Part shown: positions 6,110 through 25,513 of the stretch, in pieces
Layout of the letters: each line of letters starts with the position of its first letter
Numbering within the stretch: the stretch's first letter is position 1
NCBI GenBank assembly: GCA_001790445.1
Contig: MGCQ01000007.1
Span: 17,030 to 58,805 of the forward strand
DNA length: 41,776 nt
From: Candidatus Saccharibacteria bacterium RIFCSPHIGHO2_12_FULL_41_12
GTDB lineage: Bacteria > Patescibacteriota > Saccharimonadia > Saccharimonadales > 2-12-FULL-41-12
Direction: 5' to 3'
Position numbers and translations under genes: made by a program
Notes under the pieces: model-generated
What the model was told of the DNA's origin: nothing
Databases searched by the model: none
Seen by the model: only the letters and a program-made list of their open reading frames with translations

Positions 6110-7780
6110 TCATCCGCTCACAACGCACCTTACATAAATGGAGGCGGATTTCCCAAGATTGGGTTCTATAGAGCCATCGGAGAAATATACGGCCCACGCG
6201 GAATTGTATTCACCAAATTCTGGATCATAACCGACGGTCTCCGTAGCCGACCAATAGTAACTCGCCTGGAAGTTATTTCCATAGGAAACCTTCCCGGCAT
6301 AGATAGCTAGCAGTTCTTGCATGTTAGGCAGACGACCTCCAATCGCCTTACAGGCGTTTTGAGCTGGGTAGCCAGAGAAGTCTACCCCAGGGTTTACCTG
6401 TGGACTGACAAAACTGTACTCTGAGGGATAATTCGGATCAAGGCCGGTGGCACACTGGGGACTGCGACAAATAGAATCAGTTGGGTCCCAAGTGTAGGTG
6501 GAGCCAAGATCGGCACTACGAACATACTTGCCAGACAAGGTACCGGTTCCTGCTATCCAGTTTGGATCTGTTACTACTGTCGTAGCAGCGCTCGTTTGTG
6601 TACCAGTGTAGTTGCTTGTGCCGGTTGCCACAACCTTTATAAATTTAGTCCAATCACCCGTGACTAGGGTATATGTACTTGAGGTTGCTCCGGGTATATC
6701 TGTGTATGTCCCTTCAGAAGTAGCTGCATTTTGCCATTGATAAGTTACGGTCGCACCCAGCGGTGTTAAGGCACCAGCTGTTAAGACCTGACCTACTGTA
6801 GGCGTTCCGGTTATGGCTCCAATAGCGGTGAGTGGGGCTGTCGTAATCACACCAGTCGCTACCACATAATCTACCGGTTTTACATACTTAGCGGCGTCAG
6901 CTCCACCCAGCGTGTAGACGACAGTGATGGTTTTACCGGTACCGACGGCCGAGGTATCGTAAGTTGCTACGGCACTGACAGTGACAACGTCAGGTGCAAC
7001 TACGCCACTGAGAGATCCAGCAGTCACAGCGGCTGTTGTGTCACCATCATATGGTTTTGATAGTGTAAGGCTTGGCGCAGATATGGTTAGTTGATTGATA
7101 GCAAAGGTTACTGAGATAGTATGGTTGGCAGAAACATTCGAAAAAGTGTATGTACTAACTGCACCGGCCGAAACACCATCAACTAGAACATCATCAATAT
7201 GATAAGTGGCACCTGGAGTAATAGTGTAGGTTTGACTTGATCCATCATTTTTAGTTGTAACACCATTAGGAGTAATTGAACCGTTTGCTCCTGCTGTAGA
7301 AGTTAAAGTAAAGGTAGGGATACTTTGAACAGTCGAGACAGTCGTTGCCCCTGTATTGCCTGAACCATAATAGCTTCTTTGAGATGGAGCACTGGGGGTA
7401 GTGTCGTTTGATTCGGCGGTCGGGGTTAAAGTATCAGTGGTTAGTGGATCGGCTTTAAAAATGGCTGTTGCATTAATATCACCTTGAACATTTGTATCAA
7501 TCCTTGAAGCTTCGGTACTGCCATTGTCGCTCCATTTTACAAAGTGATATTTAGAATTAGAAACAGCAGTAACTTTTGTGCCGGTTCTACCCTTGTCAAC
7601 AGTTTGAGGAGTAGTGCCTTCAATCGAGCCGTTTGTTCCTGCTGTGTAGGTCAAAGTAAATTGAGGAATTGGTTTGTTTATGAAAAACTGGTTGATTATA
7701 AAGACAAGAGTAAGTATAGAAAGAAAGCCAACACAAATGCTAATAAATATAGCCCTGTAGGATTTACCGCCTATCATCAA
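6110..7780 (-). CDS. membrane-anchored surface/adhesin-like protein: Thr-rich beta-repeat domains and C-terminal CLec-like (DUF1566/Lcl-type) domain
   Basis: N-terminal TM; LTYTAG.NGSI repeats; SKPYDGDT YDG-like domain; C-terminal AC..IGGRLP..EL...YWSATE...AW.V.F.DG...VRCV. Confidence 0.75.
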   Translation of the reverse strand: MMIGGKSYRAIFISICVGFLSILTLVFIINQFFINKPIPQFTLTYTAGTNGSIEGTTPQTVDKGRTGTKVTAVSNSKYHFVKWSDNGSTEASRIDTNVQGDINATAIFKADPLTTDTLTPTAESNDTTPSAPSQRSYYGSGNTGATTVSTVQSIPTFTLTSTAGANGSITPNGVTTKNDGSSQTYTITPGATYHIDDVLVDGVSAGAVSTYTFSNVSANHTISVTFAINQLTISAPSLTLSKPYDGDTTAAVTAGSLSGVVAPDVVTVSAVATYDTSAVGTGKTITVVYTLGGADAAKYVKPVDYVVATGVITTAPLTAIGAITGTPTVGQVLTAGALTPLGATVTYQWQNAATSEGTYTDIPGATSSTYTLVTGDWTKFIKVVATGTSNYTGTQTSAATTVVTDPNWIAGTGTLSGKYVRSADLGSTYTWDPTDSICRSPQCATGLDPNYPSEYSFVSPQVNPGVDFSGYPAQNACKAIGGRLPNMQELLAIYAGKVSYGNNFQASYYWSATETVGYDPEFGEYNSAWAVYFSDGSIEPNLGKSASIYVRCVVSG

Positions 7781-9584: not shown

Positions 9585-9660
9585 GCGGGTATAGCTCAGT
9601 TGATAGAGCGCATCCTTGCCAAGGATGAGGCCAGGAGTTTGAGTCTCCTTACCCGCACCA
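9585..9660 (+). tRNA. tRNA-Gly(GCC)
   Basis: gcgggta/tacccgc acceptor, TT-GCC-AA loop, T-loop TTTGAGT, CCA. Confidence 0.93.
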
Positions 9661-9697
9661 AAGAAAGAAGGTCTTGAAAAAGGCCTTTTTTCTTTGG
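9658..9697 (+). terminator. intrinsic terminator-like hairpin after tRNA-Gly
   Basis: ccaaagaaagaaggtctt-gaaa-aaggccttttttctttgg inverted repeat with T-run. Confidence 0.65.
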
Positions 9698-9709
9698 TCT
9701 GAGCGAGCT

Positions 9710-9799
9710 CTCAAACTCCTGGCCTCATCAAAAATCAAAAATAGGCCATTCTCCCGACCTGCCTACGGTCGGGAAGTTTGAGTCTCCTTACCCGCACCA
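9710..9799. repeat. tRNA-Gly-derived 90-bp unit A
   Basis: 9710-9729 is the exact reverse complement of tRNA 9624-9643; 9775-9799 is an exact copy of tRNA 3' end 9636-9660. Confidence 0.92.
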
Positions 9800-9962
9800 A
9801 CGCGTCTCTTATTATTAGTATTTGATTATGATGTTATGACTAGGGAGGGGAACGTATAGCTGTTTGACATAAAACGTTCAATTGACTGGTTTGCTAAATA
9901 CGTATCATAAGAATAGTATTAGCTTATGGGGAACGTATAAATAATATGCAGAGATTCGCTAA

Positions 9963-10871
9963 ATGTCAGGAATGAATCACGGCTCAACCAACGTAAAAGG
10001 CTTGAAAATAAGTGCCGTACTATTATTCACGTACTTTATTGCGGAAATAACAGTAGCTTTGATAACCGGAAGCTTATCGTTATTGGCTGACGCTGCTCAT
10101 GAACTATCTACTGTCGTAGCTATAAGCGTATCTTTAATAGCAATTAAACTTACACACACTAAGCCTACATCTAAACGCACATTTGGATTTCACAGAGCCG
10201 AGACCGTAGCCGCACTAACTAACGGTCTTTTATTGTTAGGTATGGCTGCATTCATTATCATACGAGGCATTGATCGCCTGTCCAATCCAGTTGAAATGAA
10301 TGCAGCCCCGATGTTTGCTATGGCAATTGGCGGTATAGGACTTGAAATAGCCGCTTTGATAATTATGTATAAAGGCCAAAAAGAAAGCCTCAATATACGA
10401 GGCTCATTCTGGCATGTCATAAATGCCTTTCTAGGCAGTATTGCAGTTATCATCGCGGCTATATTTATTCAAGTAGGTCAAATATACGAAGCAGACACTT
10501 GGGCGGGGCTGGTCTTTGCCGTCATTTTGACATACGCCGCATATGGAATTATAAGGGATGCTTTACGGATATTAATTGATGCCACACCTGCAAGAATTGA
10601 TATAACCCTGATTGAAAAAGATCTCAAAGCAATAAAAGGCGTAAAAACAACCCATCATTTGCATGCTCGTACAGTCGGCGGTGGTATAGAAACTTTCTCA
10701 GGTCACCTAGTAGTAAGTAATAGTAAAAATACTATAGTCGTCCTTACCCAAGCTAAATCAATACTAGAAAAGAAATATGGTTTCAGCCTTTCAACTATTC
10801 AAATAGAAGATGACAGCATATTTGAAAGCGACCCCAAAGAGATTGAATATCAATCTAACGTGAAGCACTAA
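9963..10871 (+). CDS. cation diffusion facilitator (CzcD/ZitB-like) metal efflux transporter
   Basis: SLSLLADAAH, RTFGFHRAE..AAL.NG, SLNIRGSFWHV motifs. Confidence 0.9.
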   Translation: MSGMNHGSTNVKGLKISAVLLFTYFIAEITVALITGSLSLLADAAHELSTVVAISVSLIAIKLTHTKPTSKRTFGFHRAETVAALTNGLLLLGMAAFIIIRGIDRLSNPVEMNAAPMFAMAIGGIGLEIAALIIMYKGQKESLNIRGSFWHVINAFLGSIAVIIAAIFIQVGQIYEADTWAGLVFAVILTYAAYGIIRDALRILIDATPARIDITLIEKDLKAIKGVKTTHHLHARTVGGGIETFSGHLVVSNSKNTIVVLTQAKSILEKKYGFSLSTIQIEDDSIFESDPKEIEYQSNVKH

Positions 10872-10908
10872 ACAAAAACGAACACCACATATACGCAATG
10901 AAGTATAT

Positions 10909-10975
10909 AATTGGGAGGACCGTCCTCCGCTACCTCAGCTACAAAATTACACCAAGGAGCTCGGCATAGATTCGC
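10909..10975. repeat. REP-like repeat (10909-10942) followed by hsdM 3'-end fragment (10948-10975)
   Basis: 29/34 identity to 5990-6023; 25/28 identity to 13874-13901. Confidence 0.8.
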
Positions 10976-10991
10976 TGGTTGAAATGCATGG

Positions 10992-11109
10992 GCACCAAAG
11001 AAAGAGTCTGGTGTTTTGGCTCAAACTCCTGGCCTCATCAAAAATCAAAAATAGGTCATTCCCCCGTCCGTCTACGGCCAATGAAGTTTGAGTCTCCTTA
11101 CCAGCACCA
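10992..11109. repeat. tRNA-Gly-derived unit B
   Basis: gcaccaaagaaaga (as at 9655-9668), then 11020-11109 colinear with 9710-9799; followed by hairpin at ~11111-11141. Confidence 0.92.
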
Positions 11110-11259
11110 CAAAAGACTTTTCAGGTTTTGAAAGGTCTTTTTTTGCCCACCAATCTGTAGATTATCTGATTTTTGGGTGTAAATATTGTTTGAAAGGTTC
11201 GGTTTTTAGTTGTTAGTAAAATTGAAACTTCATAGAGTTTGTGATAACATTATAAAGTT

Positions 11260-12180
11260 ATGAACTACTCAACACAGTTAAAATCTATCCTCAACGCCTC
11301 TGGTTGGTCTCAAGAACAGTTGGCGCATAACCTCAACGTATCTTTTGCGACGCTTAACTCTTGGATCAATGACCGCTCACAACCGAGAGCTAAAGCATTA
11401 CTGAGCATTGAAAAACTGTATCTTGATACGGTCGGCGTAGATAGTGTAGACGATGCAGCACTCATGCCAGCCAAACTGGCCGCATTGAAGCTATTGGCTA
11501 GCCCCAAATCAATCTCTGGTAGTAAAGAAGTTCTAGATAAATTAACTCTTTACCTGACTTATCACACCAACACTATTGAAGGTAGCACGATGACCCTCAG
11601 TGATGTTGAAGATGTTATCTTTGACCATAAAGTATTATCCAATCGTACCGCCATAGAACAGACCGAGGCGCGCAACCACCAAGCAACGCTCCACTGGTTG
11701 CTACAGGAACTTGTAGATAAGGGTAATGGCTTTGTTATTGATGAGAAGCTAATACTTGGTATTCACTTACGCCTCATGAATGGGATTATCAGCGATGCAG
11801 GCCAGTATCGAAAACATGCTGTGCGGATTATAGGTTCGCATGTGGCCTTGGCTAACTGGGCAAAAGTACCCGAACTTGTAGCCAGCCTTATCGATGACTT
11901 AAAAAGCCCATCTACGGATATCATCAAAGTGTTAGCTGCTACTCATGCCCGATTTGAGAAAATACATCCGTTTAGTGATGGCAATGGACGTGCTGGTCGT
12001 TTAATTTTGCTCGCTCAAGCCCTCAAAGCTGGACTTATCCCACCACTAGTAGTTAAAGAGCGCAAGCATGCTTACTACAAATATCTTGAACTTGCCCAAA
12101 CTAAGGATGACTACATGCCACTCGAGCTGTTTATCTCTGAATCTATGCACTTCACGCAGGAGCTGCTCAATAGTAAGTAG
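11260..12180 (+). CDS. XRE-HTH plus Fic domain protein
   Basis: N-terminal WSQEQLA..LNVS..TLNSW HTH; TNTIEG autoinhibitory-type motif; canonical HPFSDGNGRAGR. Confidence 0.92.
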   Translation: MNYSTQLKSILNASGWSQEQLAHNLNVSFATLNSWINDRSQPRAKALLSIEKLYLDTVGVDSVDDAALMPAKLAALKLLASPKSISGSKEVLDKLTLYLTYHTNTIEGSTMTLSDVEDVIFDHKVLSNRTAIEQTEARNHQATLHWLLQELVDKGNGFVIDEKLILGIHLRLMNGIISDAGQYRKHAVRIIGSHVALANWAKVPELVASLIDDLKSPSTDIIKVLAATHARFEKIHPFSDGNGRAGRLILLAQALKAGLIPPLVVKERKHAYYKYLELAQTKDDYMPLELFISESMHFTQELLNSK

Positions 12181-12246
12181 ATAGCCCTATAAACATCTAG
12201 TATCATATCTTCTGAGGAATAGAGTTATACTTTCAGCAATAATGCT

Positions 12247-12289
12247 GCACCAAAGAAAGAGTCTGTTGTTCAGGCTCAAACCCTGGCCT
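12247..12289. repeat. degenerate tRNA-Gly-derived unit C
   Basis: gcaccaaagaaagagtctg...ctcaaac-cctggcct matches 10992-11035. Confidence 0.8.
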
Positions 12290-12349
12290 ACATACCTCTA
12301 GATTTTCTCTGTTAATAGGAGTAAAATTATAGAGAAAAAGAGAGGTAAA

Positions 12350-13921
12350 ATGTCCGAAGACCAGAAAAAACAGCTACAAACCCAACTATGGAAAATCGCT
12401 AACGAACTACGTGGCAAGATGGATGCTGATGAATTTCGCGATTATATCCTTGGCTTCATCTTTTACAAATATCTTTCAGAAAAAATTGAGCTCTACGCCA
12501 ACAAAGAGCTTTTAGCCAATGACGGCATCAAGTACGCCGATATTGATGAATCTACGGATCAGGGAGCAGAAATTTTAGGGGCTGTGAAAATCGCGGCCAT
12601 CGACAAACTTGGCTATTTCCTCAAACCCAGCGAGCTGTTCCATCACGTTGCTGCGCACGGCAATCTGAACGACAACCTGATCGAACAGCTAGAAAAGACT
12701 CTGGGCGATATCGAATCTAGCACTATGGGCCAAGATAGCGAAGACGACTTTGACAAACTTTTTTCAGAGCTTGACCTCAACGCTAGTCGTTTGGGCAAAA
12801 CTGTTAGCCAACGCAACGATCTCATCGCCAAAGTACTGGTACATCTGGATAAAATTGATTTTCAGCTAGAAAATTCTCAGATCGATATTCTGGGCGATGC
12901 CTACGAATATCTGATCAGCCAATTTGCCAGTGGCGCCGGTAAAAAAGCTGGTGAATTCTACACTCCCCAAGAAGTAAGCACTATACTGGCCCGGGTCGTC
13001 ACGAACGGCAAAAAACAGCTCAAAAGTGTCTACGATCCAACCTGTGGCTCTGGCTCATTATTGCTGCGAGTAGCCAAATATGTGCAAGATGTTGATCATT
13101 TTTATGGTCAAGAACTAAATAACACCACCTACAACCTAGCGCGCATGAATATGATTTTGCATGACGTACATTTTGCCAATTTTGACATCAAGCAAGAGGA
13201 CACGCTCGAGAACCCACAACATGCCGAGCTACGTTTTGAGGCAATTGTTGCCAATCCGCCCTTTAGCGCCAACTGGTCAGCAAATCCGATCCACCTCAGT
13301 GATGATCGTTTTAGCCAATACGGCAAACTGGCACCCAGCAGCAAAGCAGATTATGCGTTTATTCAGCATATGGTTTACCAGCTCGACGACAACGGCACTA
13401 TGGCGGTGGTTATGCCACATGGCGTGCTATTTCGCGGGGCGGCTGAAGGCCATATCCGCCAATATTTGATCAAAGAAAAGAACTATCTCGATGCCGTGAT
13501 TGGTTTGCCTGCAAATTTGTTCTTTGGTACTAGCATTCCAGCCTGTATTTTAGTGTTCAAAAAATGCCGCACCAACCCAAATGATATTTTGTTTATTGAT
13601 TCCAGCCAACACTTTGAAAAGGGCAAGAACCAAAACCGACTGCGTCCGAGCGATATCGATAAAATCATCGAAACATACAGCCGACGCAAAAGCGAAGATA
13701 AATACAGCTACGTCGCTCCGCTTAGCGAGGTAAAAGAAAACGACTACAACCTCAACATCCCCCGCTACGTCGACACATTTGAGGAAGAGGAAGAGATCGA
13801 CCTCGACAAAGTCGTGGCAGAAATCCGCAAAATAGACAAAGAGTCAGTAGGAATTGACCAAAAAATCGCAAAATACACCAAGGAACTCGGCATAAACTCG
13901 CCATTCGGAGAAATAAAATGA
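12350..13921 (+). CDS. hsdM: type I R-M methyltransferase subunit M
   Basis: GEFYTP, YDPTCGSGSLL, ANPPF, PHGVLFRG motifs. Confidence 0.97.
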   Translation: MSEDQKKQLQTQLWKIANELRGKMDADEFRDYILGFIFYKYLSEKIELYANKELLANDGIKYADIDESTDQGAEILGAVKIAAIDKLGYFLKPSELFHHVAAHGNLNDNLIEQLEKTLGDIESSTMGQDSEDDFDKLFSELDLNASRLGKTVSQRNDLIAKVLVHLDKIDFQLENSQIDILGDAYEYLISQFASGAGKKAGEFYTPQEVSTILARVVTNGKKQLKSVYDPTCGSGSLLLRVAKYVQDVDHFYGQELNNTTYNLARMNMILHDVHFANFDIKQEDTLENPQHAELRFEAIVANPPFSANWSANPIHLSDDRFSQYGKLAPSSKADYAFIQHMVYQLDDNGTMAVVMPHGVLFRGAAEGHIRQYLIKEKNYLDAVIGLPANLFFGTSIPACILVFKKCRTNPNDILFIDSSQHFEKGKNQNRLRPSDIDKIIETYSRRKSEDKYSYVAPLSEVKENDYNLNIPRYVDTFEEEEEIDLDKVVAEIRKIDKESVGIDQKIAKYTKELGINSPFGEIK

Positions 13922-14562
13922 GTAGTTACATATTTATGGACGAAAGCGGTGATTTGGGCTTCGATTTTACCAAAAAGAAAACCTCTCACTATTTTGTGGT
14001 AACCTTTTTATTTGCGAAAGACAAGAAAAAGCTTAACAAGTTGGTTCGGAAGATTTTTAGAAACTTTAGCAAAACAGAAATAAAAAATCACCACGGCACG
14101 CTACACGCATTCAAGGAAAAACCCGTAACTCGCATGCGGTTATTGAATCTACTCTCAGAGCAAGACGTGTATATTCTGACCGTTAGAATGAATAAAAAGA
14201 ACGTCTATACAAAATTGCAAGATGAAAAACACGTACTCTATAACTATGTGGTGAATATATTGCTAGATAGAATGATCAGAAAAAAGCTAGTCCCACAGAA
14301 CAAGCCCGTACACTTTGTTGCATCAAAAAGAGAAACGAACAAGTTTTTGAACGAAAACTTTGCGACATATCTTAAAGAACAGTCTAAAACTAATCACAAA
14401 CTAGATATTAATATTGAGATCAAAACCCCTAGTGAAGAAAAAGGGTTGCAAATTGTAGATAGTTTGGCGTGGAGCTTCTTTAGAAAATACGAGCACGAAG
14501 ATGAATCGTATGCAGACATAGTCAAAGGTAAAGTGGTTGAAGAAAATGGCTTATTCACATAA
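13918..14562 (+). CDS. DUF3800-like (RNase H-fold) protein
   Basis: N-terminal YIFMDESGDLG and C-terminal GLQIVD.LAW motifs characteristic of DUF3800. Confidence 0.8.
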   Translation: MSSYIFMDESGDLGFDFTKKKTSHYFVVTFLFAKDKKKLNKLVRKIFRNFSKTEIKNHHGTLHAFKEKPVTRMRLLNLLSEQDVYILTVRMNKKNVYTKLQDEKHVLYNYVVNILLDRMIRKKLVPQNKPVHFVASKRETNKFLNENFATYLKEQSKTNHKLDINIEIKTPSEEKGLQIVDSLAWSFFRKYEHEDESYADIVKGKVVEENGLFT

Positions 14563-14583
14563 CCATCACCCAGAAAAGGAAAA

Positions 14584-14679
14584 TCCTCTGTCGTTATTTA
14601 CGAGGAACCATACGGAGCCCCACGACAGAGGAATTACTTACCATCTGCATTGTAGCATAAGCATTCCGCTTATGTCAAT
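14584..14679. ncRNA. candidate structured RNA downstream of DUF3800 gene
   Basis: perfect 11-bp stem tcctctgtcgt(14584-94)/acgacagagga(14622-32); second hairpin cataagc/gcttatg (14656-14674). Confidence 0.5.
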
Positions 14680-14724
14680 CTCACAACAAAAAAGGAGCTC
14701 GGCGTAGCTTCGCCGGTTTAGATT

Positions 14725-15237
14725 ATGTCCACAATCCCTTTATCAAAAAAGAATAGGCGATTAATCCTCGAGTCATTGAGTAAAAGACAGAATCAACTTT
14801 GGGTAAAGCGCAATGAGCTATTAGAAGATGCAGGGATGAGTGAGGAAGGTATGCACTCAGATTTTATGTATTTGCTCGGCAAGGGGTACATTAGTGTTCC
14901 AGGTCCAGGTCCTATCGATCAGCTACAGTATATTCCTTACGCACACATGAAAATTACAGCTGCGGGTAATGATTATCTAGAGGAGCTTGCTCAAGAGCCA
15001 AAGCAAGCAGAAGCGCAAAAAACATTACTAAGTGTTCCAGGCAATCACAATAAGTTTCATAATGTATCGGTCGGTGGAGGAGTGGACGTGCCTGGCGAGA
15101 ATAATGCATTCACAAAAACAAGTATAGGTCATATACCGAGATCCAATGAACATAAATTGCTTTGGTGGTTTATGAGCATTGTAGCGGGTGTAATTGTTTT
15201 GCTAATAGGTGTGTATGTCCTCGGGGTAGGAAAATGA
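14725..15237 (+). CDS. hypothetical protein, possible winged-helix N-terminus and C-terminal TM helix
   Basis: YLLGKGYI...KITAAGNDYLE pattern; hydrophobic C-terminus; stop overlaps hsdS ATG. Confidence 0.65.
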   Translation: MSTIPLSKKNRRLILESLSKRQNQLWVKRNELLEDAGMSEEGMHSDFMYLLGKGYISVPGPGPIDQLQYIPYAHMKITAAGNDYLEELAQEPKQAEAQKTLLSVPGNHNKFHNVSVGGGVDVPGENNAFTKTSIGHIPRSNEHKLLWWFMSIVAGVIVLLIGVYVLGVGK

Positions 15238-16448
15238 ACACTACAACAACCAAAAAAGTGCCGGAGCTTCGCTTTCCTGAGTTTAGTGGTGAGTGGCAGA
15301 CTATAAAGCTTGGTGATTTTATCGATAGTCTTGATGCAGGAGTTAGCGTAAATTCCGAGGACAGAGTGGCCAAGGATGATGAAAAAGCAATATTAAAAAC
15401 TAGTTGTGTAACCAAAGGCACTTTTGACTGCAAGGAGAATAAGGTCGTTACCGACAGCGCAGAGACTCGAAGGCTAAAAGAATCAATCGAGGTAGATACA
15501 ATCATTATCAGCCGGATGAATACACCACAGTTAGTTGGCGCAAATGCACTTGTACATGAGTCGAACGAGAACATTTTTTTACCTGACAGACTTTGGGCTG
15601 CAAAAATCAAAACCAATGCATCACCAAGATGGATTGCTCTAAAACTTGGTAGTAAAAGTATGCGTGCTCATCTGAGCGTACTAGCAACAGGAACAAGCAA
15701 TTCTATGAAAAACGTCACAAAAGGCGATGTACTTAACGCGAAAATACTTGCTCCGTCGCGCGAGGAGCAGAAGAAGATTGCGGGGTTTTTGGGAGTGGTG
15801 GATGAGAGGGTTGCGGTGATTGATAAAAAAGTCGAGCTGCTGAAAAAATACAGAAAAGGCGTCATGCAAAAAATCTTTCCACCAGCAAACGGACAGACTC
15901 CCAAAATCCGCTTTTCTGATGAAAATGGCAAAAACTACCCTGACTGGCAAGGGAAAAAGCTTGGCGATATATTAGCCTATGAACAACCTACAAAATATAT
16001 TGTTAAATCGACGGAATACGATGATAAATATAAGACACCTGTATTAACAGCCGGCAAGACGTTTATCTTAGGGTATACAGACGAAGAAGACGGAATTAAC
16101 AATGATATTCCGGTCATCATTTTTGACGACTTTACGACCGCTAGTCACTTTGTTGATTTCCCGTTTAAAGTTAAGTCGTCCGCGATGAAAATTCTGAGAA
16201 CAAAAACAGACGTAAATATAAAAGTAGCATACGAGTTACTAAGCAAGATAAAGTTTGTGGTCGGTGATCATAAGCGACACTGGATTGGTGAATTTCAAGA
16301 CTTTGCTATTAACCTACCCAGCGAAAAAGAACAGCAGAAAATCGCAGATTTTCTGACAAACCTAGATGATAAAATTAATGTAGTAGAAAGGCAGCTGGAG
16401 CAGGCCAAAAACTTCAAAAAATCCCTCCTCCAACAAATGTTTGTATGA
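15234..16448 (+). CDS. hsdS: type I R-M specificity subunit S
   Basis: VPELRFPEF, P..EEQKKIA.FL, EQQKIADFL..LD, KSLLQQMF conserved regions; ATG at 15234 overlaps the upstream TGA. Confidence 0.95.
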   Translation: MNTTTTKKVPELRFPEFSGEWQTIKLGDFIDSLDAGVSVNSEDRVAKDDEKAILKTSCVTKGTFDCKENKVVTDSAETRRLKESIEVDTIIISRMNTPQLVGANALVHESNENIFLPDRLWAAKIKTNASPRWIALKLGSKSMRAHLSVLATGTSNSMKNVTKGDVLNAKILAPSREEQKKIAGFLGVVDERVAVIDKKVELLKKYRKGVMQKIFPPANGQTPKIRFSDENGKNYPDWQGKKLGDILAYEQPTKYIVKSTEYDDKYKTPVLTAGKTFILGYTDEEDGINNDIPVIIFDDFTTASHFVDFPFKVKSSAMKILRTKTDVNIKVAYELLSKIKFVVGDHKRHWIGEFQDFAINLPSEKEQQKIADFLTNLDDKINVVERQLEQAKNFKKSLLQQMFV

Positions 16449-18823
16449 AATTGTGCTTAATTAAAACTATAGAAAACTACAAGTCATTTCAAAATTTTCG
16501 ATGGCAGAATTTTTTTAATTCTCAAGAATTTCATGACACAATAAATATACTCTATGGTGAAAACGGAACTGGGAAAAGCTCAGTTTGTAATATCCTAAAA
16601 AGTGTTTGTGGTGATAAAAAGCCTTTCGTAACAAATCAGATACCTAACGGAATTTGTTTGAAGTTTGACAATGGAGAGTATAAATTTTCAAACAAATCAA
16701 ATGCTTGGGACAAAACTAAAAGTACTGACGATTTTTTGTTTTTCGATCGTGAATTTGTACATGACAACATACATCTAGGGAATATGAGAGATACACAAGC
16801 AAACGGACAGGAACAAAAGTCCGGTAAAATGATTGTTCAATTTGATAGCGAAGCGATAAAGCTCCGTGAAGCTCGTCAAAAAACGAAAAAGGCTAAAGAC
16901 GATAAAGATGGTGAAATCAAAAAATACAATGAAGACCATAAAGATACTTTGAAATTTCTACTTTCAGAAGACGAAAGTCCCTTATTTGATACTTATAAAG
17001 ATAAAACAAAAGAAGAAATTACAGGGCTAAAAAAAGAACTCACAAAAGACAAAAAGGGAACGGAGAAGAAACTTGAAACCGATGGAGCAACTCAAAAACA
17101 AGTTAATGATATTCAAAATTCAATCACCGAAATCAGCAACGAAAAAATTGAATTATCATTATCAGAACAATCGATTTATCAAGCATTTTTCAATTTTGAT
17201 CTAAAAGAACAAGTACAAATACAAGCAGAGCAAGATTTAATTGTCAAAATAAGAAAGCATGAAGATTTTTTTCAAACTGGTATTGAAATCAGAGAAGAAA
17301 ACAAAAGCAAATGCCCGTTTTGCCAGTCAGAGAATGAAGAAGAAAATATTGGAAAAATCATCAAAGCTTACAATGATATTTTTGACGATACTTATAAAAA
17401 ACAGCTTCAATCCTTTGAAGACAATAAAAAAGCACTGATTGAAGAACTGGAAGATCTTGTCAATGCAGTTAAAAACTATGATATCGATTCTGTTTTTGTT
17501 TCCATGAGTGAACTAAATCAAAAATACAAAATCAAAGATATTTATTCAGTAGAAGAACAAAAGAAGCACAAAAAACCGACAACAAACAAGATTGCGGATT
17601 TGAAGAAAAAAATCGAAAATCTAAAAAAGCCAAGAAGTGAAGATATTGTAGAAGTTTACAATAAGGCAAAAACCGAATTTGAAACTTTAGAAACCTTTTT
17701 TGACGATATTTACACATTTATTGAGAAGAAAAACAAACTTATTCGTAAATTTAAAACAGATAATACAGACGAGAAAATACAACAAAGAATCACAGTAAAT
17801 AATCAAAAAATTGGAGAAATTGATTTAAGGATAACTTTTTTTACCGAGGGAAAGATTGACAAACAAAAACAAAAAGAAGCTAAAGAAAAAGGACTTGCGA
17901 CTACTCAAAAGGAATTTGAAGATTTAAGGACAAAACACGATAAAGCGAAAGAAGATTATGAAAAATATTGCTCCGAAGAAGTATTTGAAAAGACTTTGAA
18001 AAAAATCGAAGAATATTTTGATAAATTTAAATTCAGTTTCAAATTAAAATTAAAGACAGAAAAAACAAGAAACAAAACTGAATTTCCTTTTGCTTTCAAG
18101 GTTTTGGATAATGAAGGAGATGAAAGAGATTTTAAGGAAGGATTATCAGAGGGAGAATTGCAAGTTTTATCATTATGCTTTTTCTTTGCTTTTCTTGATA
18201 TACAGACGAATCCTGAAAATAAAGTCTTGGTATTTGATGATCCGATTACGAGCCTTGATAACAACAACTTAAGCCATTTAGTAGATCTAATCGCAGAAGA
18301 ACACGCCAAATTTTCTCAAACTTTTATTTTCACTCATCACAGAACGTTTTTTAAGTTTTTGAGAAAGAGTTTTAAAACTGGAAAAAATAATGGCAATCTA
18401 GGAAATGAATACAACATAATTCGTAACAAAAAAGAACTCGGGGGCAGTTTTATTTGTAAAAGTTGTTCAACAGACTTTAAGAATAAACTGGAAGGTTTTG
18501 AAAATAATATTTATAATAAGGCACAACAAGGAACACCAATAAATATTGAGATGAAAATTGTTGAGTATGGTCAATATTTGAGATATGAAGTAGAAAAATT
18601 TATCAAAAACGATTTACTGTTTTGGGATGCTGATAGTCAATTTTCAAAAGCTATCGATGGTATAAAAAATAGCAGGAATGACATTTCTGATCAGGATTTA
18701 GATAAAATAAATAAAGTTTATGAATTTTGTAATTGGACAACCTCTCATGTAGATGTTGGAGATGACCACGGTCTAGAAACATTGAAAACGAATATAAATA
18801 CCTTTATGGGGATTGTTAAATGA
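16445..18823 (+). CDS. RloC-like ABC/SMC-type ATPase with zinc hook; putative anticodon nuclease
   Basis: Walker A GENGTGKS, coiled coil with CPFC hook, LSEGE signature, VFDDPITSLD Walker B/D-loop, FTHH, C-terminal N..SH; lies between hsdS and hsdR; visibly AT-rich. Confidence 0.75.
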   Translation: MKLCLIKTIENYKSFQNFRWQNFFNSQEFHDTINILYGENGTGKSSVCNILKSVCGDKKPFVTNQIPNGICLKFDNGEYKFSNKSNAWDKTKSTDDFLFFDREFVHDNIHLGNMRDTQANGQEQKSGKMIVQFDSEAIKLREARQKTKKAKDDKDGEIKKYNEDHKDTLKFLLSEDESPLFDTYKDKTKEEITGLKKELTKDKKGTEKKLETDGATQKQVNDIQNSITEISNEKIELSLSEQSIYQAFFNFDLKEQVQIQAEQDLIVKIRKHEDFFQTGIEIREENKSKCPFCQSENEEENIGKIIKAYNDIFDDTYKKQLQSFEDNKKALIEELEDLVNAVKNYDIDSVFVSMSELNQKYKIKDIYSVEEQKKHKKPTTNKIADLKKKIENLKKPRSEDIVEVYNKAKTEFETLETFFDDIYTFIEKKNKLIRKFKTDNTDEKIQQRITVNNQKIGEIDLRITFFTEGKIDKQKQKEAKEKGLATTQKEFEDLRTKHDKAKEDYEKYCSEEVFEKTLKKIEEYFDKFKFSFKLKLKTEKTRNKTEFPFAFKVLDNEGDERDFKEGLSEGELQVLSLCFFFAFLDIQTNPENKVLVFDDPITSLDNNNLSHLVDLIAEEHAKFSQTFIFTHHRTFFKFLRKSFKTGKNNGNLGNEYNIIRNKKELGGSFICKSCSTDFKNKLEGFENNIYNKAQQGTPINIEMKIVEYGQYLRYEVEKFIKNDLLFWDADSQFSKAIDGIKNSRNDISDQDLDKINKVYEFCNWTTSHVDVGDDHGLETLKTNINTFMGIVK

Positions 18824-21666
18824 CTACGCAATCCGAACAAACACTAGAAAATAACCTTATCGCTCAGCTGCATGAGATGAAGTACGAGCGGGTTGCTATT
18901 GCTGATGAAGTGGCGTTGGTAGCAAATCTTAAAACACAACTAGAAAAACACAATGGTGTCACGCTGAGCGACAAGGAATTTAGCAAAGTACTGAGTTATC
19001 TGAGCAAAGGCAATGTGTTTGATCGCGCCAAAACGCTACGGGACAAAATGCATTTGGTACGAGATGACGGCACCAGCGCATACATAGAATTTATAAACCA
19101 AAAAAAGTGGTGCCAAAACCAGTTTCAGGTAACGAATCAAGTCACCATAGACGGCGCGTACAAAAACCGCTACGACGTCACGATCCTTGTAAACGGCTTG
19201 CCACTGGTGCAAATAGAGCTAAAACGCCGAGGCCTAGAGCTCAAAGAAGCCTTTAACCAAGTGAACCGCTACCGCAAACATTCGTATGCCGCAGGCTATG
19301 GGCTATACCAGTATGTGCAGATTTTTGTGATTAGCAACGGTGTAAATACAAAATATTATTCCAACACCGTGGGGTACGACAACGACAAAAAAGCATCGTT
19401 CAAATTCACCTCGTACTGGGCAGATAAAGACAACCTAAAAATCACAAAGCTAGAAGATTTTGCCAAAGTTTTCCTAGAAAAATGCCACATCGCCAAGATG
19501 ATTGCCAAATATACGGTGTTACAAACCAACAAAACATTGGTAGTGCTGCGACCGTATCAATATTATGCGGTAGAAGAAATTGTCGACCGCGTAAGTAGTG
19601 GCAACAAAAACGGCTATATTTGGCACACCACAGGCAGCGGCAAAACTCTAACATCGTTTAAAGCCAGTCAACTACTGGTAGATAACCCAGACGTCTACAA
19701 GGTTGTGTTTGTGGTGGACCGTAACGACCTAGACAACCAAACGATTCGTGAATTTAACAATTTTAAAAAAGACAGCGTGGACGCCACTGACAACACTCAT
19801 AGTTTGGTAAAGCAATTTGGCGAGCCCGATACCAAGCTAATCGTCACAACTATTCAAAAGCTCAATAACGCCGTCACGCACGAGCGTCATGCCCTAAAAA
19901 TGGTCACGCATCGCGATAAAAAGATTGTCTTTATCTTTGACGAATGCCATCGCAGCCAGTTTGGCGAAACACACAAGAAAATTACCGAATATTTCACCAA
20001 TCGCCAGTTGTTTGGCTTTACTGGCACACCGATTTTTGCCGAAAACGCCAGCGGCAATGCTATGGGCAAGCGCACTACAAAAGAACTGTTTGGCGAGTGC
20101 CTGCACAAATATGTGATTACCGATGCAATAAGTGATGAAAATGTGCTGAAATTTGCGGTAGAGTATGTCGGTAAATATAGGCGCAAAGACAGCGCCAACG
20201 AGATAGATGTTGATGTAGAAGCCATCGACACCAAAGAGTTGATGGAATCGCCGCAACGGATTGAGAAAATCACTGATTATATTATCGCCAATCACGACCG
20301 CAAGACGCACAGCCGCGATTTTACCGCGATTTTTGCCCTCAGCAGCATAGATGTACTGACAAAATACTATGATATATTTCGAGCCAAGAAACAGTCTGGC
20401 GATCACAACTTGAAAATCGCGACGATATTTAGCTATGGCACCAACGAAGAAGACAAAAATGCCGATAGTATGTTGGATGATGACCCGCAGTTGGATCTAT
20501 TTAGTCAGATCAATCAACATTCGCGCGACAAGCTGGAAAGCTATATTGCGGATTATAACGAGATGTTCGGCACGAGCTATTCTACCAAAGATAGCCAGAG
20601 CTTTTACAACTACTATCGCAACATTGCTGACCGCTTGAAAGCCCGCGAGATCGATATTTTGCTGGTGGTGAATATGTTTTTGACTGGGTTTGATAGCCCG
20701 ACCCTAAACACTATGTACGTAGATAAAAACTTGCGATATCACGGTTTGTTGCAAGCTTACTCTCGAACTAATCGCATATTAAACGAAACGAAATCACAGG
20801 GGAACATTGTGGTGTTTCGTAACCTCAAAAAGGCAACCGATGACGCGCTGCGACTTTTTGCTGATAAAAACGCCCAAGAGGTTATCTTTATGGAGCCGTA
20901 CGAAGATTACGCGGCGAAGTTTGACGAGATGGTGGCGCAACTATACGCACAGACGCCAACCCCCGAAAGTGTTGATAACTTAGTGGGCGAAGAAGCGCAG
21001 TTGGAATTTGTAAAGACGTTTCGTGAGTTAATGCGACTCAAAAACATCCTTGTTTCGTTTGCTGACTTTGATTTTAGCCATGTGTCTATAGGCGAGCAAA
21101 CATTCAATGACTTTAAGAGCAAATATTTGGACATTTACGACAAAGTCAGGGGTGATCACGAGAAAGAAAAGGTGTCAATATTGGAAGACGTCGACTTTGA
21201 ACTGGAGCTGATCCGAAGAGATGAGGTTAACGTGGATTACATTATCCGTCTGCTGGCGCAACTGGTTGGCGCGGATGAGGCCAAGACAGCAAAATTGATG
21301 CAGAACATTATGGACACGATGTCGACTGACGCAACGTTGCGCAGTAAGCGTGAGTTGATAGAGAAGTTTATCAATAGTACGATACCAAATATCTCTAATG
21401 CCGAGGATGTTGAAACGGAGTTTAATAACTTTTGGGACCAAGAAAAGCTCGAAGCTTTTCAGGAAATGTGCAGTGAGGAGGGGCTGATGAATGATAAGCT
21501 GCAGGCACTGATTGATCGCTATTTGTATAGTGGACGCAAGCCACGCAAGGAAGATTTTGCCAAAGCACTCGAAAAACAACCAGGAATTTTGCAAAGAGAA
21601 TCGATTATCAAACGTGTGACCAGCAAGTTTAATGGTTTTATTGAGACCTTTATCGAAGGAGTTTGA
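18820..21666 (+). CDS. hsdR: type I R-M restriction subunit R
   Basis: RYDV..LVNGLPLVQIELK, WHTTGSGKT, DECHR, FTGTP, LTGFD, QAYSRTNR. Confidence 0.97.
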   Translation: MTTQSEQTLENNLIAQLHEMKYERVAIADEVALVANLKTQLEKHNGVTLSDKEFSKVLSYLSKGNVFDRAKTLRDKMHLVRDDGTSAYIEFINQKKWCQNQFQVTNQVTIDGAYKNRYDVTILVNGLPLVQIELKRRGLELKEAFNQVNRYRKHSYAAGYGLYQYVQIFVISNGVNTKYYSNTVGYDNDKKASFKFTSYWADKDNLKITKLEDFAKVFLEKCHIAKMIAKYTVLQTNKTLVVLRPYQYYAVEEIVDRVSSGNKNGYIWHTTGSGKTLTSFKASQLLVDNPDVYKVVFVVDRNDLDNQTIREFNNFKKDSVDATDNTHSLVKQFGEPDTKLIVTTIQKLNNAVTHERHALKMVTHRDKKIVFIFDECHRSQFGETHKKITEYFTNRQLFGFTGTPIFAENASGNAMGKRTTKELFGECLHKYVITDAISDENVLKFAVEYVGKYRRKDSANEIDVDVEAIDTKELMESPQRIEKITDYIIANHDRKTHSRDFTAIFALSSIDVLTKYYDIFRAKKQSGDHNLKIATIFSYGTNEEDKNADSMLDDDPQLDLFSQINQHSRDKLESYIADYNEMFGTSYSTKDSQSFYNYYRNIADRLKAREIDILLVVNMFLTGFDSPTLNTMYVDKNLRYHGLLQAYSRTNRILNETKSQGNIVVFRNLKKATDDALRLFADKNAQEVIFMEPYEDYAAKFDEMVAQLYAQTPTPESVDNLVGEEAQLEFVKTFRELMRLKNILVSFADFDFSHVSIGEQTFNDFKSKYLDIYDKVRGDHEKEKVSILEDVDFELELIRRDEVNVDYIIRLLAQLVGADEAKTAKLMQNIMDTMSTDATLRSKRELIEKFINSTIPNISNAEDVETEFNNFWDQEKLEAFQEMCSEEGLMNDKLQALIDRYLYSGRKPRKEDFAKALEKQPGILQRESIIKRVTSKFNGFIETFIEGV

Positions 21667-21731
21667 GGGTTTAATAATCGCAAAAGTACGTCAACAACTC
21701 ACAAAAAGGGGCTTTTTGGTATGATGTATCT

Positions 21732-22391
21732 ATGAAAAAACTATTTCTTGCATCAAGTGGGCTTGAATACATCAAGCAATTCGTTGGTTTTGGTCCATCT
21801 GAAGTTAAGATGCTCTTTATCCCAACTGCCGGAAATCTTGATAAAGATGCCTGGTGGATCGACAAAGATCGAGATGTTCTAGGCAAAATGGGTTTTCAGA
21901 TTACCGAGCTTGATATATCCAAAGCCAGTGTCGATGAGATGCAAAAGCAATTAGATGCTACCGATATTGTTTATATCGCAGGAGGGAACACATTCTATTT
22001 GCTAAAACAACTCCAGGACTCGGGGTTTGACAAGTTGCTCAAAAACTTCGTAGAAGGTGGCGGTCTGTATGCAGGTGTTAGTGCGGGGGCTATCGTAGCT
22101 GGTGTAGATATTGAGCCAGTTTTGACACTTGATGAACCTGAGAAAGTGCATGGGCTTGAGTCAACCAAAGGCTTGGGATTTGTGAATATTGTACCTATTC
22201 CTCATTACGATATGGCTTCTAGGTCAGCAGCGATAGACGAAATCAAGGAGAAATACGCAGGGAAGTACGACATAGTATTATTAACGGATGAGGATGCCAT
22301 ATATGTTGAGGGTGATACATGGAAGGTAGTGAAATCAGCAAAAACCGCTCTTGAGCACGAGTGGTTCAACAATAACCACGACGGCGTGTAA
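21732..22391 (+). CDS. peptidase E / S51 family (class I glutamine amidotransferase-like)
   Basis: FIPTA, GGNTFYLL, G.SAGA, PHY motifs. Confidence 0.85.
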   Translation: MKKLFLASSGLEYIKQFVGFGPSEVKMLFIPTAGNLDKDAWWIDKDRDVLGKMGFQITELDISKASVDEMQKQLDATDIVYIAGGNTFYLLKQLQDSGFDKLLKNFVEGGGLYAGVSAGAIVAGVDIEPVLTLDEPEKVHGLESTKGLGFVNIVPIPHYDMASRSAAIDEIKEKYAGKYDIVLLTDEDAIYVEGDTWKVVKSAKTALEHEWFNNNHDGV

Positions 22392-22415
22392 CCCCAGATT
22401 TATTTGGTCTATATT

Positions 22416-22778
22416 TTACTCGACCTTTTGAGGTGGGCTACTAGATTCTGGCTTGCTCGGGGCGGTGGCTTGCTCCGCGTTTTTCTTTTCTGCAAAGAAG
22501 TACGCTATAGCGCCAATAAAGCTAAGTCCTACAACAAACGAAACAACGAGGACGAGTATCCATGTACTTCTATCAGGGCTGTTGTGCTTGATCGCATGTA
22601 TGAGCATTAATAGCCAAAAGATAAATGCAATAATTGAAATAACAAGGATAAAAACGAATATCCCAACGCCTAGACCGATAAATGGCTTTGCTTTTTCCGC
22701 AAGCTCGGCACAGTCTATTGGCTGACCATTTAATGTGCATTGTGATTGTGCCGTTTGTGCTATTAGCAAAAAATTCAT
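22416..22778 (-). CDS. small membrane protein with PLDc_N-like domain
   Basis: FW..MLIHA....W.LV.......GAI.YFF pattern. Confidence 0.65.
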   Translation of the reverse strand: MNFLLIAQTAQSQCTLNGQPIDCAELAEKAKPFIGLGVGIFVFILVISIIAFIFWLLMLIHAIKHNSPDRSTWILVLVVSFVVGLSFIGAIAYFFAEKKNAEQATAPSKPESSSPPQKVE

Positions 22779-22877
22779 AACTATCTCCCTAAATTACTAC
22801 CACCATTTAAGCATTAAAATGTCTCAAATTGCAACAAATCTCCCTTTAGGCTTTTTTGGTAAAAATGATGAAAGAAA

Positions 22878-22915
22878 TTGACACTATGTATTACATCGTG
22901 TAAAATGTATTACAT
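22878..22915 (+). promoter_or_regulatory. sigma70 promoter with two palindromic operators for the TA operon
   Basis: TTGACA(22878)-17 bp-TAAAAT(22901); ATGTATTACAT palindrome at 22886-96 and 22905-15. Confidence 0.8.
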
Positions 22916-23183
22916 GACATACAACACAACAGTTACAAGCAAAGGGACTATTACTATCGCTGCACCACTACGTAAAGCTTTAGGGTTAAAGACTGGTCAA
23001 AAGCTAACGGTTACGCTTAATTCAAACAATCAAGTAGTGCTTGATGCAGGCACTGACTTGAAAACCTTTGAAGCAACAAGAGCAAAAATAACCAAGAAAA
23101 TTCCCAGTCATCTTAAAGGACTTGCAGGCGATTCCTTGCGTGAAGCTGCCGCCAAAGCTTGGGTTGCCGGAAATAATGATTAG
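22914..23183 (+). CDS. AbrB/MazE-type antitoxin (VapB-like)
   Basis: TVTSKGTITI..PLRKALGL..G swapped-hairpin motif. Confidence 0.85.
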   Translation: MTYNTTVTSKGTITIAAPLRKALGLKTGQKLTVTLNSNNQVVLDAGTDLKTFEATRAKITKKIPSHLKGLAGDSLREAAAKAWVAGNND

Positions 23184-23559
23184 TTTAGACACAAATGTAG
23201 TCCTGCGTTTTCTGCTTGATGATGTACCCGAGCAGACAAAAAAAGCGACAAATGTAATCGGAAAAAATAAGGTCTATGTCACAGACGTTGTAGTTGTCGA
23301 AGTAGTTTACGTCCTAGAAAAAGTTATCCTGCTACCGCGTCAGGACATAACTCGGCTAGTGACTGATTTTTTGGGGTTTGCAAACGTGGTGCATAATCCA
23401 TACTTTCTATTGGAAGTTATTCAACTGTATGAACACCACCCCTCACTTTCGGTTGTAGATTGTTATGCGACTGCAGAGGCAAAAGCCTACAATAATCAGT
23501 TGATAACATTTGATAAGCGATTAATTAGTCAAGGCGGTAGGCACGTCACTAGTTTGTAG
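23176..23559 (+). CDS. PIN-domain toxin (VapC-like)
   Basis: LDTNVVLR, E.VYVL, S.VD, TFDK acidic PIN residues; overlaps antitoxin stop. Confidence 0.88.
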   Translation: MISLDTNVVLRFLLDDVPEQTKKATNVIGKNKVYVTDVVVVEVVYVLEKVILLPRQDITRLVTDFLGFANVVHNPYFLLEVIQLYEHHPSLSVVDCYATAEAKAYNNQLITFDKRLISQGGRHVTSL

Positions 23560-23634
23560 TATCAAACTAGGTTGTTGTTATAGTACGCGAACGTACGTTT
23601 GTAATACGCTTTACTTTAGGGTATACATAGAAAC

Positions 23635-25449: not shown

Positions 25450-25513
25450 AAATTACCTGAATACAGAACACTTTTATAACCAACGATCATTGACCCATGT
25501 TATGCTTTAATGT

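Follow-up and report, generated by a model that had tools for sequence, protein, structure and literature searches.

The window analysed here, a stretch of 41,776 nucleotides from the genome of Candidatus Saccharibacteria bacterium RIFCSPHIGHO2_12_FULL_41_12 (order Saccharimonadales), contains a hypervariable array of accessory genes between tRNA-Gly(GCC) and tRNA-Cys that is punctuated by modules built around pieces of the tRNA-Gly gene. The repeated unit of these modules, ~90 nt long, is a structured element, so far undescribed but widespread in the order, and this holds even if the unit is not recombinogenic; in the text returned by full-text searches of the literature no description of it was found. 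We put at about even odds (probability near 0.5) the reading that the units are an order-wide family of structured attachment (att)-type sites for cassettes that have no integrase of their own and are worked in trans.

The array begins where a Leu-Val-Phe-Gly tRNA cluster, as annotated by ARAGORN, ends with tRNA-Gly(GCC). For this tRNA we designate the anticodon-stem 3' strand, variable loop, and T-stem 5' strand together as B, the T-loop octamer as O, and the T-stem 3' strand, acceptor 3' strand, and CCA as B'. Two units, A and B, follow, each of 90 nt, colinear and 89% identical (Table 1). The positions and sequences that a first-pass annotation of the same DNA had given for both units and for the tRNA are correct. 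In each unit a 20-mer (9710-9729 and 11020-11039) is a 100% complement of tRNA positions 9624-9643 (B-O), and the last 25 nt of the tRNA (9636-9660, O-B', from the T-loop to CCA) recur as a direct 3' repeat of the island type at 9775-9799 (25/25) and 11085-11109 (24/25). Both arms had been recognized from the sequence, as had the inner hairpin of unit A, which lies where it had been placed. In unit B this hairpin is degenerate, and there is one mismatch in B'. The 17-nt tRNA end is present in three copies versus 0.05 expected from shuffled sequence. The junction between the tRNA end and its trailer, GCACCAAAGAAAGA, has three exact copies, at 9655, 10992, and 12247; at ≤2 mismatches there are four matches, and 0 of 100 shuffles gave as many. 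What had been called a degenerate third unit consists only of GCACCA, a trailer, and a 15-nt piece of the antisense arm, with no sense half, and type I restriction-modification (R-M) genes come after it.

The terminator stem of trailer 1 takes in the ACCA of the tRNA (arms 9657-9675 and 9680-9698). Cassette 2 starts with a terminator-like hairpin (~11110-11146) directly after the pseudo-tRNA end of unit B, and a promoter-like site lies at 11222-11250, before the Fic open reading frame (ORF). No analogous antisense copies follow the window's other seven tRNAs, and in the genome as a whole (856 kb, 9 contigs, 92.6% complete) units are found at the tRNA-Gly locus only.

Table 1. Features of the tRNA-Gly array in the window (positions in the window; CM, covariance model)
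Feature	Position	Strand	Evidence or pairing
tRNA-Gly(GCC), array anchor	9585-9660	+	ARAGORN; Rfam tRNA 69 bits
Trailer 1: A-tract / GC hairpin / T-tract terminator, then ggtctgagcgagct	9661-9709	+	19-nt inverted repeat, 89%
Unit A	9710-9799	+	repeats; fold z -5.4; CM R1 93.1 bits
Unit A, antisense 20-mer (LE)	9710-9729		
Unit A, A-rich loop	9730-9742		
Unit A, H1, sense aggcca of tRNA variable region	9743-9748		pairs with 9720-9725
Unit A, H2, inner hairpin	9752-9759 with 9767-9774		paired arms
Unit A, O agtttgag, P1 strand	9775-9782		pairs with 9710-9717
Unit A, B'	9783-9799		
Cassette 1, cation diffusion facilitator (CDF) cation-efflux gene	9800-10991, ORF 9963-10871	+	Pfam Cation_efflux 3.2e-38, ZT_dimer
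GCACCA and trailer 2, without terminator hairpin	10992-11019	+	opens with tRNA/trailer junction 14-mer
Unit B	11020-11109	+	89% identity to unit A; z -2.6; CM R1 81.4 bits
Cassette 2, helix-turn-helix (HTH)-Fic gene	11110-12246, ORF 11260-12180	+	Pfam Fic 9.3e-19, HTH_3
Partial unit C: GCACCA, 22-nt trailer 3, 15-nt antisense-arm piece (12275-12289)	12247-12289	+	repeat, 91%
Remaining variable interval up to tRNA-Cys / tRNA-Leu(taa) block	12350-26246	+	Pfam
Candidate distal remnant of tRNA-Gly 3' end	26322-26338	+	13/17 to B', last 9 nt exact; weak, 9-mer could be chance

Each unit runs from the antisense B-O arm through an A-rich loop of 13-17 nt to the sense variable region (H1), a hairpin without counterpart in the tRNA (H2), and finally sense O-B'. 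For the single-stranded unit, the predicted fold is a three-way junction that leaves a 17-nt tail unpaired, the antisense arm pairing with both sense pieces. The arms had been described as such before; the short sense segment that makes H1, and with it the three-way junction, is an addition to that description. Fold energies were -18 kcal/mol for unit A (z -5.4) and -8.6 kcal/mol for unit B (z -2.6), and a unit of locus L019 had a z of -4.9. Upstream of the units stands a terminator of A-tract, GC hairpin, and T-tract that opens with the ACCA of a tRNA end. A terminator is often also found behind B', as behind a real tRNA gene, which fits a site that must restore the tRNA after recombination.

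A covariance model, R1, was built from eleven aligned units of 89-93 nt. In a model-fitted alignment of 44 matches, 85.9% of cells pair, a share that falls to 26-47% if partners are shifted by 1-3 columns; two-sided changes are seen in 19 of 21 pairs, and none of 500 shuffles gave values as high as those observed. Because this alignment included tRNA genes, which match the model weakly, covariation was recounted with 27 units, after 17 of the 44 rows (3 same-genome duplicates, 11 tRNA genes, and 3 partial units) had been dropped. In this set 137 of 156 cells pair in the outer H2 stem, with three to six pair types at each of its six positions, and the corresponding counts are 123/135 for the P1 stem and 144/159 for the H1 stem. 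Stem covariation is present, and H2, which is not derived from the tRNA, is nevertheless kept by compensatory change. G-T pairs outnumber A-C mismatches in the 27 units (33 versus 15 overall, 14 versus 2 in P1), a wobble bias that suggests the + strand as the folding strand. This strand has the sense of the tRNA and is the G-rich strand by its positive GC skew, from which we infer that it would be the lagging-strand template. No Rfam family matches the unit.

The searched sets were 151 genomes spread evenly across the order, a 30-genome family set, and a class-level sample of 151 genomes; in the tallies of the order set, genome G062 is counted in denominators only. R1 gave full-length matches in 19 of the 151 order genomes and 17 of 121 genera, so the 90-bp unit, first described from a single genome, is a real conserved family. 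At E ≤ 1e-4 there were five matching genomes among the 151 of the class-level sample, all five labelled as the same order, and none among 92 genomes of 14 families (f72-f85) absent from the order sample. An exact-pattern scan of one genome per species returned three other Saccharibacteria/Saccharimonadales assemblies, and G011, from the family-level search, also bears units. A pattern scan of metagenomes gave six matches, of which four are true contigs; the other two, L021 and L022, are chance matches in coding sequence without a tRNA. No unit was found in two exact-pattern scans of a viral contig collection, which covered two tRNA variants.

The position of the units was compared at 14 loci, namely those of 13 genomes with 14-19 kb around the units and that of G011. 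At all 14 loci the R1 units lie downstream of tRNA-Gly(GCC), on the tRNA strand, and at 8 of them tRNA-Cys / tRNA-Leu(taa) close the interval, as in the window. The tRNA-Gly to tRNA-Cys interval measures 3.4-16.8 kb. Unit length is 86-105 nt, and in nine of nine proximal units of type 1 (type 2 is described below) the distance from the tRNA to the start of the B' copy is 121-125 nt; the L056, L057, and L061 arrays are without a proximal unit.

The antisense arm follows the local tRNA. The 20-nt B-O segment exists in 12 versions among 19 loci, and the arm best matches the tRNA of its own locus in 18 of 23 units, with three ties and two worse matches, both in the diverged units of G161. Distant units still match their own tRNA, at 20/20 positions in L054 (3.3 kb away), 20/20 in L064 (4.1 kb), and 19/20 in L056 (8.1 kb). 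In unit A the arm matches the tRNA at 20 of 20 positions, of which only 14 have a partner within the unit; what constrains the arm is thus the tRNA gene or its product, the tRNA, and not the unit stem alone.

At L062 (genome G173), ~57 nt after tRNA-Gly, the proximal arm ctcaaactcgtggcct differs from its own tRNA at 2 of 13 core positions and equals the arm expected from the G077 tRNA variant. To judge by these sequences it is as if the module had come from another lineage; imported DNA would look so. A second unit family, type 2, consists of a short antisense/sense hairpin of T-stem and T-loop, a conserved 19-nt loop, ~75 nt, and B'. Examples are L054 ~7390-7570, L026 664-840 (its second unit), L017 11635-11788 (minus strand), and unit A' of G011. 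The type 2 loop gtgagtgagcaaagcgaac is found in two genomes, and the unit ends in an exact copy of the last 17 nt of the tRNA.

The genes between the units vary. Metagenome contig L025, from close kin, is 100% and 97% identical to the window over the upstream tRNAs and 92% identical over tRNA-Gly and unit A, and its first slot holds an S66 LD-carboxypeptidase gene where the window has the CDF gene. Units thus persist while cassette genes change; uniqueness of the unit together with constant content in relatives, the outcome that the first-pass annotation had named as fatal to its proposal, is not what was found. The S66 gene of L025 is followed by GCACCA and a terminator, then by an antisense arm with 95% identity to the second arm of the window, and between this arm and the sense half of the second unit lies a MazE-PIN pair. 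Its DNA is 79% identical to that of the window genes at 22869-23561, which are away from any unit there. Of the window proteins compared with all fetched loci by tblastn, only MazE and PIN matched, both in L025; the CDF, Fic, HsdM, S51, and holin-like proteins gave no match.

The suggestion of one gene per unit did not survive the comparison. There are two or three genes between repeats in G011 and L019 and 2-5 genes per interval in other arrays, and in L023 two units have no gene between them. An antisense arm is followed directly by cargo in the window (12275-12289), L025, L026, and L063. The variable intervals of 17 loci yielded 148 ORFs and 112 Pfam families; among the 25 commonest families, RibD_C (5) came first, then GNAT, PIN, HAD, and SMC_N / AAA_23 (3 each), recombinases having been tested separately.

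GCACCA, followed by a terminator, precedes 15 of the 21 distal units or antisense arms by 28-63 nt; farther upstream, the distal units compared have no further likeness to the tRNA. The terminators differ between cassettes, and the similarity between the window and L025 restarts only ~14 nt before the antisense arm, so GCACCA and the terminator may, on these alignments, be part of the cassette. The first-pass annotation had taken GCACCA for the core of the site; the hexamer does recur, but it heads a terminator that varies with the cassette and may belong to it. An assembled contig of public run X1 equals the window from 12195 onward and has 255 nt of unrelated sequence before that point, which suggests a co-occurring variant with another gene ahead of the same cassette end and hints that ~50 nt before GCACCA are common to different cassettes. 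L032 and the window have ~25 nt in common upstream of GCACCA.

A segment of ~250 bp with a small ORF recurs at 80-89% DNA identity in six loci (L025 2809-3070, L026 1628-1883, L064, L066, L024, and L039). These are from different genomes, whose housekeeping flanks are just ~65-72% identical. In L025 and L026 a unit half or GCACCA follows closely downstream of the segment. Its small ORF (63 aa in L025) has no Pfam or NCBIfam match.

There is no PF00589 gene in the arrays of five position-checked unit-positive genomes or in that of the window's own genome, which has one such gene, on another contig. This gene passes the XerA-type model NF040815 (238.8 bits versus a cut-off of 220), falls below the XerC and XerD cut-offs, and scores 133.5 bits versus 265 for the integron integrase model TIGR02249. 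PF00589 was found in 144 of the 151 order genomes, mostly as a single match of ~145-160 bits, and exactly once in 16 of the 19 unit-positive genomes. For most arrays this rules out a dedicated integrase in cis. The array is thus integrase-less, as it had been called, with none in or near the arrays examined and mostly a single housekeeping-type Xer elsewhere. The remaining agents are a housekeeping Xer-type enzyme, an enzyme of an element outside these assemblies, or homologous recombination. The Xer-type enzyme is the first candidate because it is the sole tyrosine recombinase in most unit genomes, and its presumed involvement is a matter of elimination only.

None of the other recombinase families examined could be tied to the units. 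The window's own genome has one large serine recombinase gene, 45 kb past the window end, and one rve gene, on another contig. A large serine recombinase was rejected as a required partner, being present in three of five checked unit-positive genomes and missing from G065 (99% complete) and G148 (96%). In G067, one of these three, a gene for a 523-aa large serine recombinase (L056 16656-18227) lies inside the tRNA-Gly to tRNA-Cys interval, ~6.5 kb from the G067 unit and on the opposite strand. An HUH enzyme or REP-associated tyrosine transposase (RAYT; REP, repetitive extragenic palindromic) had been considered a possible partner; Y1_Tnp occurs in 7 of 19 unit-positive genomes and in 46 of 151 overall, so that it shows no association with units. 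Two Y1_Tnp (HUH) genes, each of ~220 aa, lie in the own genome (C7:118685-118978 and C9:97583-97813), one of them weakly of the REP-associated type (55 bits, cut-off 80), and some order genomes have many copies. For an IS110-type (DEDD, bridge-RNA) recombinase, there was no PF01548 match in the own genome.

The arrangement was checked in assembled (Logan) contigs of other public runs, in which rare forms are not visible. The junction of tRNA, unit A, and CDF is spanned by contigs of runs X2 and X4, and that of Fic, GCACCA, partial unit, and hsdM by contigs of X2, X3, and X4; the unit B junction is covered in X1 only, which is possibly the source run. The joints found among the run contigs map to the upstream tRNA cluster and derive from tRNAs of other organisms. 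It is extremely improbable that the array arose by local duplication or reflects misassembly at a repeat. Logan contigs do break inside the repeated antisense arm (X1), and the coverage of the unit B junction in the possible source run alone would suit such an origin. Against this, the order sample has 18 further genomes with the same architecture, which also recurs in G011 and in four metagenome contigs of other assemblies, and the junctions of unit A and partial unit C are spanned in runs of other studies.

If the units are att-type sites, a full module would consist of GCACCA with an intrinsic terminator, LE, the A-rich loop, H1, H2, O-B', and often a terminator of its own, and the genes between modules, sometimes between module halves, would be integrase-less cassettes or mini-islands. 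A circular or single-stranded cassette would carry one module as its putative recombination site, and this module would recombine with the T-arm / 3' end of tRNA-Gly, as the presumed place of crossover there, or with a resident module. Recombination would regenerate an intact tRNA 3' end and terminator and leave a new target, so that arrays would grow in tandem. The enzyme would act in trans, a single Xer-type enzyme being the first candidate. A more ambitious version is tentative, being conceivable and well short of likely: an integron-like capture system of Saccharimonadales without a dedicated integrase, whose ~90-nt site would fold in single-stranded DNA (the lagging-strand template or transforming DNA) into the three-way junction and would be recombined by a Xer-type enzyme, or be guided to its target by pairing with the two strands of the tRNA gene. 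Again tRNA and new target would be regenerated, and the locus would serve as an order-wide marketplace for accessory and defence genes.

The att-type reading is preferred because a scar or a homology patch alone fails on the combined features, which are the fixed length and position, the intact tRNA 3' end with its terminator, the inverted copy that follows the local tRNA, the variable hairpin kept by structure, the second unit family, and the gene turnover between intact units. Nevertheless, a number of results weigh against it. GCACCA is missing in 6 of 21 cases (L037, L039, the second unit of L041, L043, unit B' of G011, which has GCACTA, and the second unit of L020, which has a truncated antisense arm). 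The cassettes have no sharp left edge, their right edge is just the hexamer GCACCA, and the direct junctions of antisense arm and cargo fall after 15, 20, or 33 nt. Cassettes carry their own terminators, and the Fic gene a promoter-like site, unlike integron cassettes. The alignment used for covariation was fitted to the model, so that its counts lean towards structure. No enzyme is tied to the units. A Xer-type gene is present in 144 of 151 genomes, with or without units, so its co-occurrence with units says nothing, and no dif-like palindrome was found beside the xer gene. Genome G001, of the same genus, has tRNA-Gly with no unit in 10.6 kb downstream, so the unit is dispensable. Finally, no excision joint, circle junction, or pair of empty and occupied sites with clean breakpoints was present in assembled contigs. 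The circular cassettes and excision joints expected from the first-pass annotation were equally not seen in the contigs of public runs, where no cassette-skipping joint or circle junction occurred among the assembled contigs.

Some of these results would suit homologous recombination alone, an explanation that we regard as unlikely. The modules would then be portable homology combined with insulators, and cassettes would be exchanged by RecA-dependent double crossover, for example after natural transformation, with the left crossover in the tRNA-Gly/unit block, the right one in the next module or the tRNA-Cys block, and no site-specific enzyme. Saccharibacteria are naturally competent. The cassettes are bordered by modules of 112-139 bp and the interval as a whole by conserved tRNA blocks; in the comparison of the window with L025, similarity ends at the edges of the cassettes and the flanks are 92-100% identical, a pattern that a double crossover would give just as well. 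The absence of a dedicated recombinase, the imprecise junctions of antisense arm and cargo, and the bidirectional-looking terminator in every module also fit. However, portable homology does not explain why the arm tracks the local tRNA over 15-20 nt, why the hairpin is compensated, or why length and distance to the tRNA are constant. It also leaves unexplained that unrelated genes with unrelated terminators end at GCACCA (15/21) and that a second unit family has the same antisense / sense / 3'-end logic. The strong covariation and the wobble bias towards the + strand, which is the tRNA sense (G-T 33 versus A-C 15), could instead point to RNA. In that case a + strand transcript with a three-way junction and a tRNA-like 3' tail would be a structured RNA or a transcription/processing signal, acting as insulator, as processing or stability element, or as a regulator that senses or pairs with tRNA-Gly, and the repeats would mark gene borders because each imported gene brings or needs one. 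Terminators do bracket the units, and the antisense arm is complementary to tRNA-Gly also where it has no partner inside the unit. We nevertheless judge an RNA role decidedly unlikely. The 10-15 nt between the upstream terminator and the unit are too short for a promoter, and none was predicted in that stretch; no Rfam family matches; and the exact direct repeats of the tRNA 3' end, the split unit of L025, and the restriction to one hypervariable locus would be left unexplained.

Little credence is given to ordinary, decayed tRNA islands. Here an integrase-bearing element would have integrated repeatedly at the tRNA-Gly T-loop, the units would be attP arms left at attL/attR after loss of integrase and cargo, and nothing would be mobile now. 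Direct repeats of the tRNA 3' end with tRNA restoration are the textbook signature of such islands; in work on tRNA sublocations they are said to mark these elements. Degenerate or split units (unit B, partial unit C, L064), the large serine recombinase gene held by the G067 array, and the better fit of the L062 proximal arm to a foreign tRNA variant would suit decay. It is at odds with the lack of a tyrosine integrase in the five position-checked arrays and the own one, with the presence of only a Xer-type gene in 16 of 19 genomes, and with the absence of units from the two viral-contig pattern scans. Nor does decay predict a conserved length, covarying stems, a mostly intact 17-nt 3' end, or close relatives whose intact units enclose different single genes.

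Compared with known systems, the att-type sites proposed here would share with integrons a tandem of small accessory genes (toxin-antitoxin, GNAT, vicinal oxygen chelate (VOC), and dihydrofolate reductase (DHFR)-like RibD_C) separated by imperfect inverted-repeat sites of ~60-140 nt, a structure kept in preference to sequence in part of the site and, in the proposed mechanism, a target regenerated in each round. By eye, the arm ends CTCAAAC/CTCTAAC and GTTTGAG/GTTAGAG agree at 5-6 of 7 positions with the attC core consensus, RYYYAAC/GTTRRRY; this serves as a lead only. The units have an inverted-repeat fold and covariation, but their stem is mostly tRNA-derived and conserved in sequence. An asymmetric element lies on one side of the stem in both; here it is the H2 branch, and in attC, according to, for example, PMC2727003 and PMC5027507, it consists of extrahelical bases. 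In contrast to integrons, no IntI gene adjoins any array examined, the anchor is a tRNA gene and not attI, and the site is made of the neighbouring tRNA's sequence and tracks that tRNA. The cassettes, with terminators of their own and at least one promoter-like site, are not promoterless, several genes per interval are common, and the wobble bias favours the top strand, in contrast to the bottom strand used by attC.

The cis-mobilizable elements (CIMEs) of Streptococcus thermophilus are integrase-less. The array resembles them and tandem tRNA islands in lying at a tRNA 3' end, in its direct repeats of 17-25 nt, in the restoration of the tRNA with a terminator, and in its succession of att-flanked segments without an integrase of their own, which would need one in trans. 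Unlike in autonomous tRNA islands, no integrase gene lies in the array next to an att site; the serine recombinase gene of G067 is not next to a unit. Unlike for CIMEs, no cognate integrase-bearing element was found in the checked genomes or, by exact-pattern scans only, in viral contigs. Ordinary att scars do not hold an inverted copy of the upstream half of the tRNA as the units do, and a constant unit length, a covarying hairpin, and conservation across an order and not in a few strains set the units apart from tandem islands and CIMEs alike.

In CTX-type elements two inverted half-sites fold in single-stranded DNA and mimic the host target, and integration can be in tandem. The folded inverted half-sites of the units, their mimicry of the target, and their tandem arrangement recall such integrative mobile elements exploiting Xer (IMEX), of which CTX phage is one. 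According to PMC6449649, PMC12907356, and PMC13141974, Acinetobacter plasmid dif modules lack a recombinase, are bounded by short sites, and are thought to be moved by housekeeping Xer. The array likewise has discrete gene modules bounded by short sites and without a recombinase of their own, and a host Xer-type recombinase is present, as for dif modules and IMEX. Its sites differ from both in mimicking the T-arm and 3' end of a tRNA and not dif, and in being ~90 nt long with an extra hairpin, in one orientation, at one chromosomal locus. With REP/REPIN-RAYT systems the units have in common that they would be short, structured, gene-less repeats acted on in trans, and the own genome has two Y1_Tnp genes; unlike those repeats, the units are not dispersed and have no Y1_Tnp association. 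The element resembles integrons, cis-mobilizable islands, and Xer-dependent dif modules. It belongs to none of them: it lacks IntI and its cassettes are not promoterless, the searches gave no cognate integrase-bearing element, and its sites are not known to be dif-like.

Saccharibacteria and other bacteria of the Candidate Phyla Radiation (CPR) have very small genomes with few recognizable mobile elements, and to the best of our knowledge little has been established about how accessory and defence genes are exchanged among CPR bacteria. For one order, the locus gives a concrete and testable answer in the form of a single hot spot, from tRNA-Gly to tRNA-Cys, with gene turnover. If recombinogenic, the units would add a third natural design to the cassette platforms known from integrons and dif modules, give an example of a recombination site that tracks its target by carrying both of its strands, and offer a ready landing pad for genetics in cultivable Saccharibacteria.

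The rest of the variable interval in the window (12350-26246) contains hsdM, hsdS, hsdR, DUF3800 and AAA_13 inserts, an S51 peptidase gene, MazE-PIN, a deformylase gene, and others, and similarity to relatives restarts at tRNA-Cys (26499). The candidate remnant of the tRNA-Gly 3' end at 26322-26338 lies directly after tRNA-Glu, ~160 nt before tRNA-Cys, and matches B' of the G083 tRNA-Gly variant at 14 of 17 positions; it may be a scar at the distal side of that interval, or a chance match. When the sequences preceding tRNA-Cys were aligned for four genomes, they showed no homology beyond this short motif. In the type I R-M cluster, hsdM (12350-13921), hsdS (15162-16448), and hsdR (18820-21666) are split by a DUF3800 gene (13918-14562), an unassigned ORF (14725-15237), and a gene for an AAA_13 ATPase (16445-18823). 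GC content falls to 0.29-0.35 at 16-19 kb of the window, and 12350-21666 looks like a defence island with a foreign insert.

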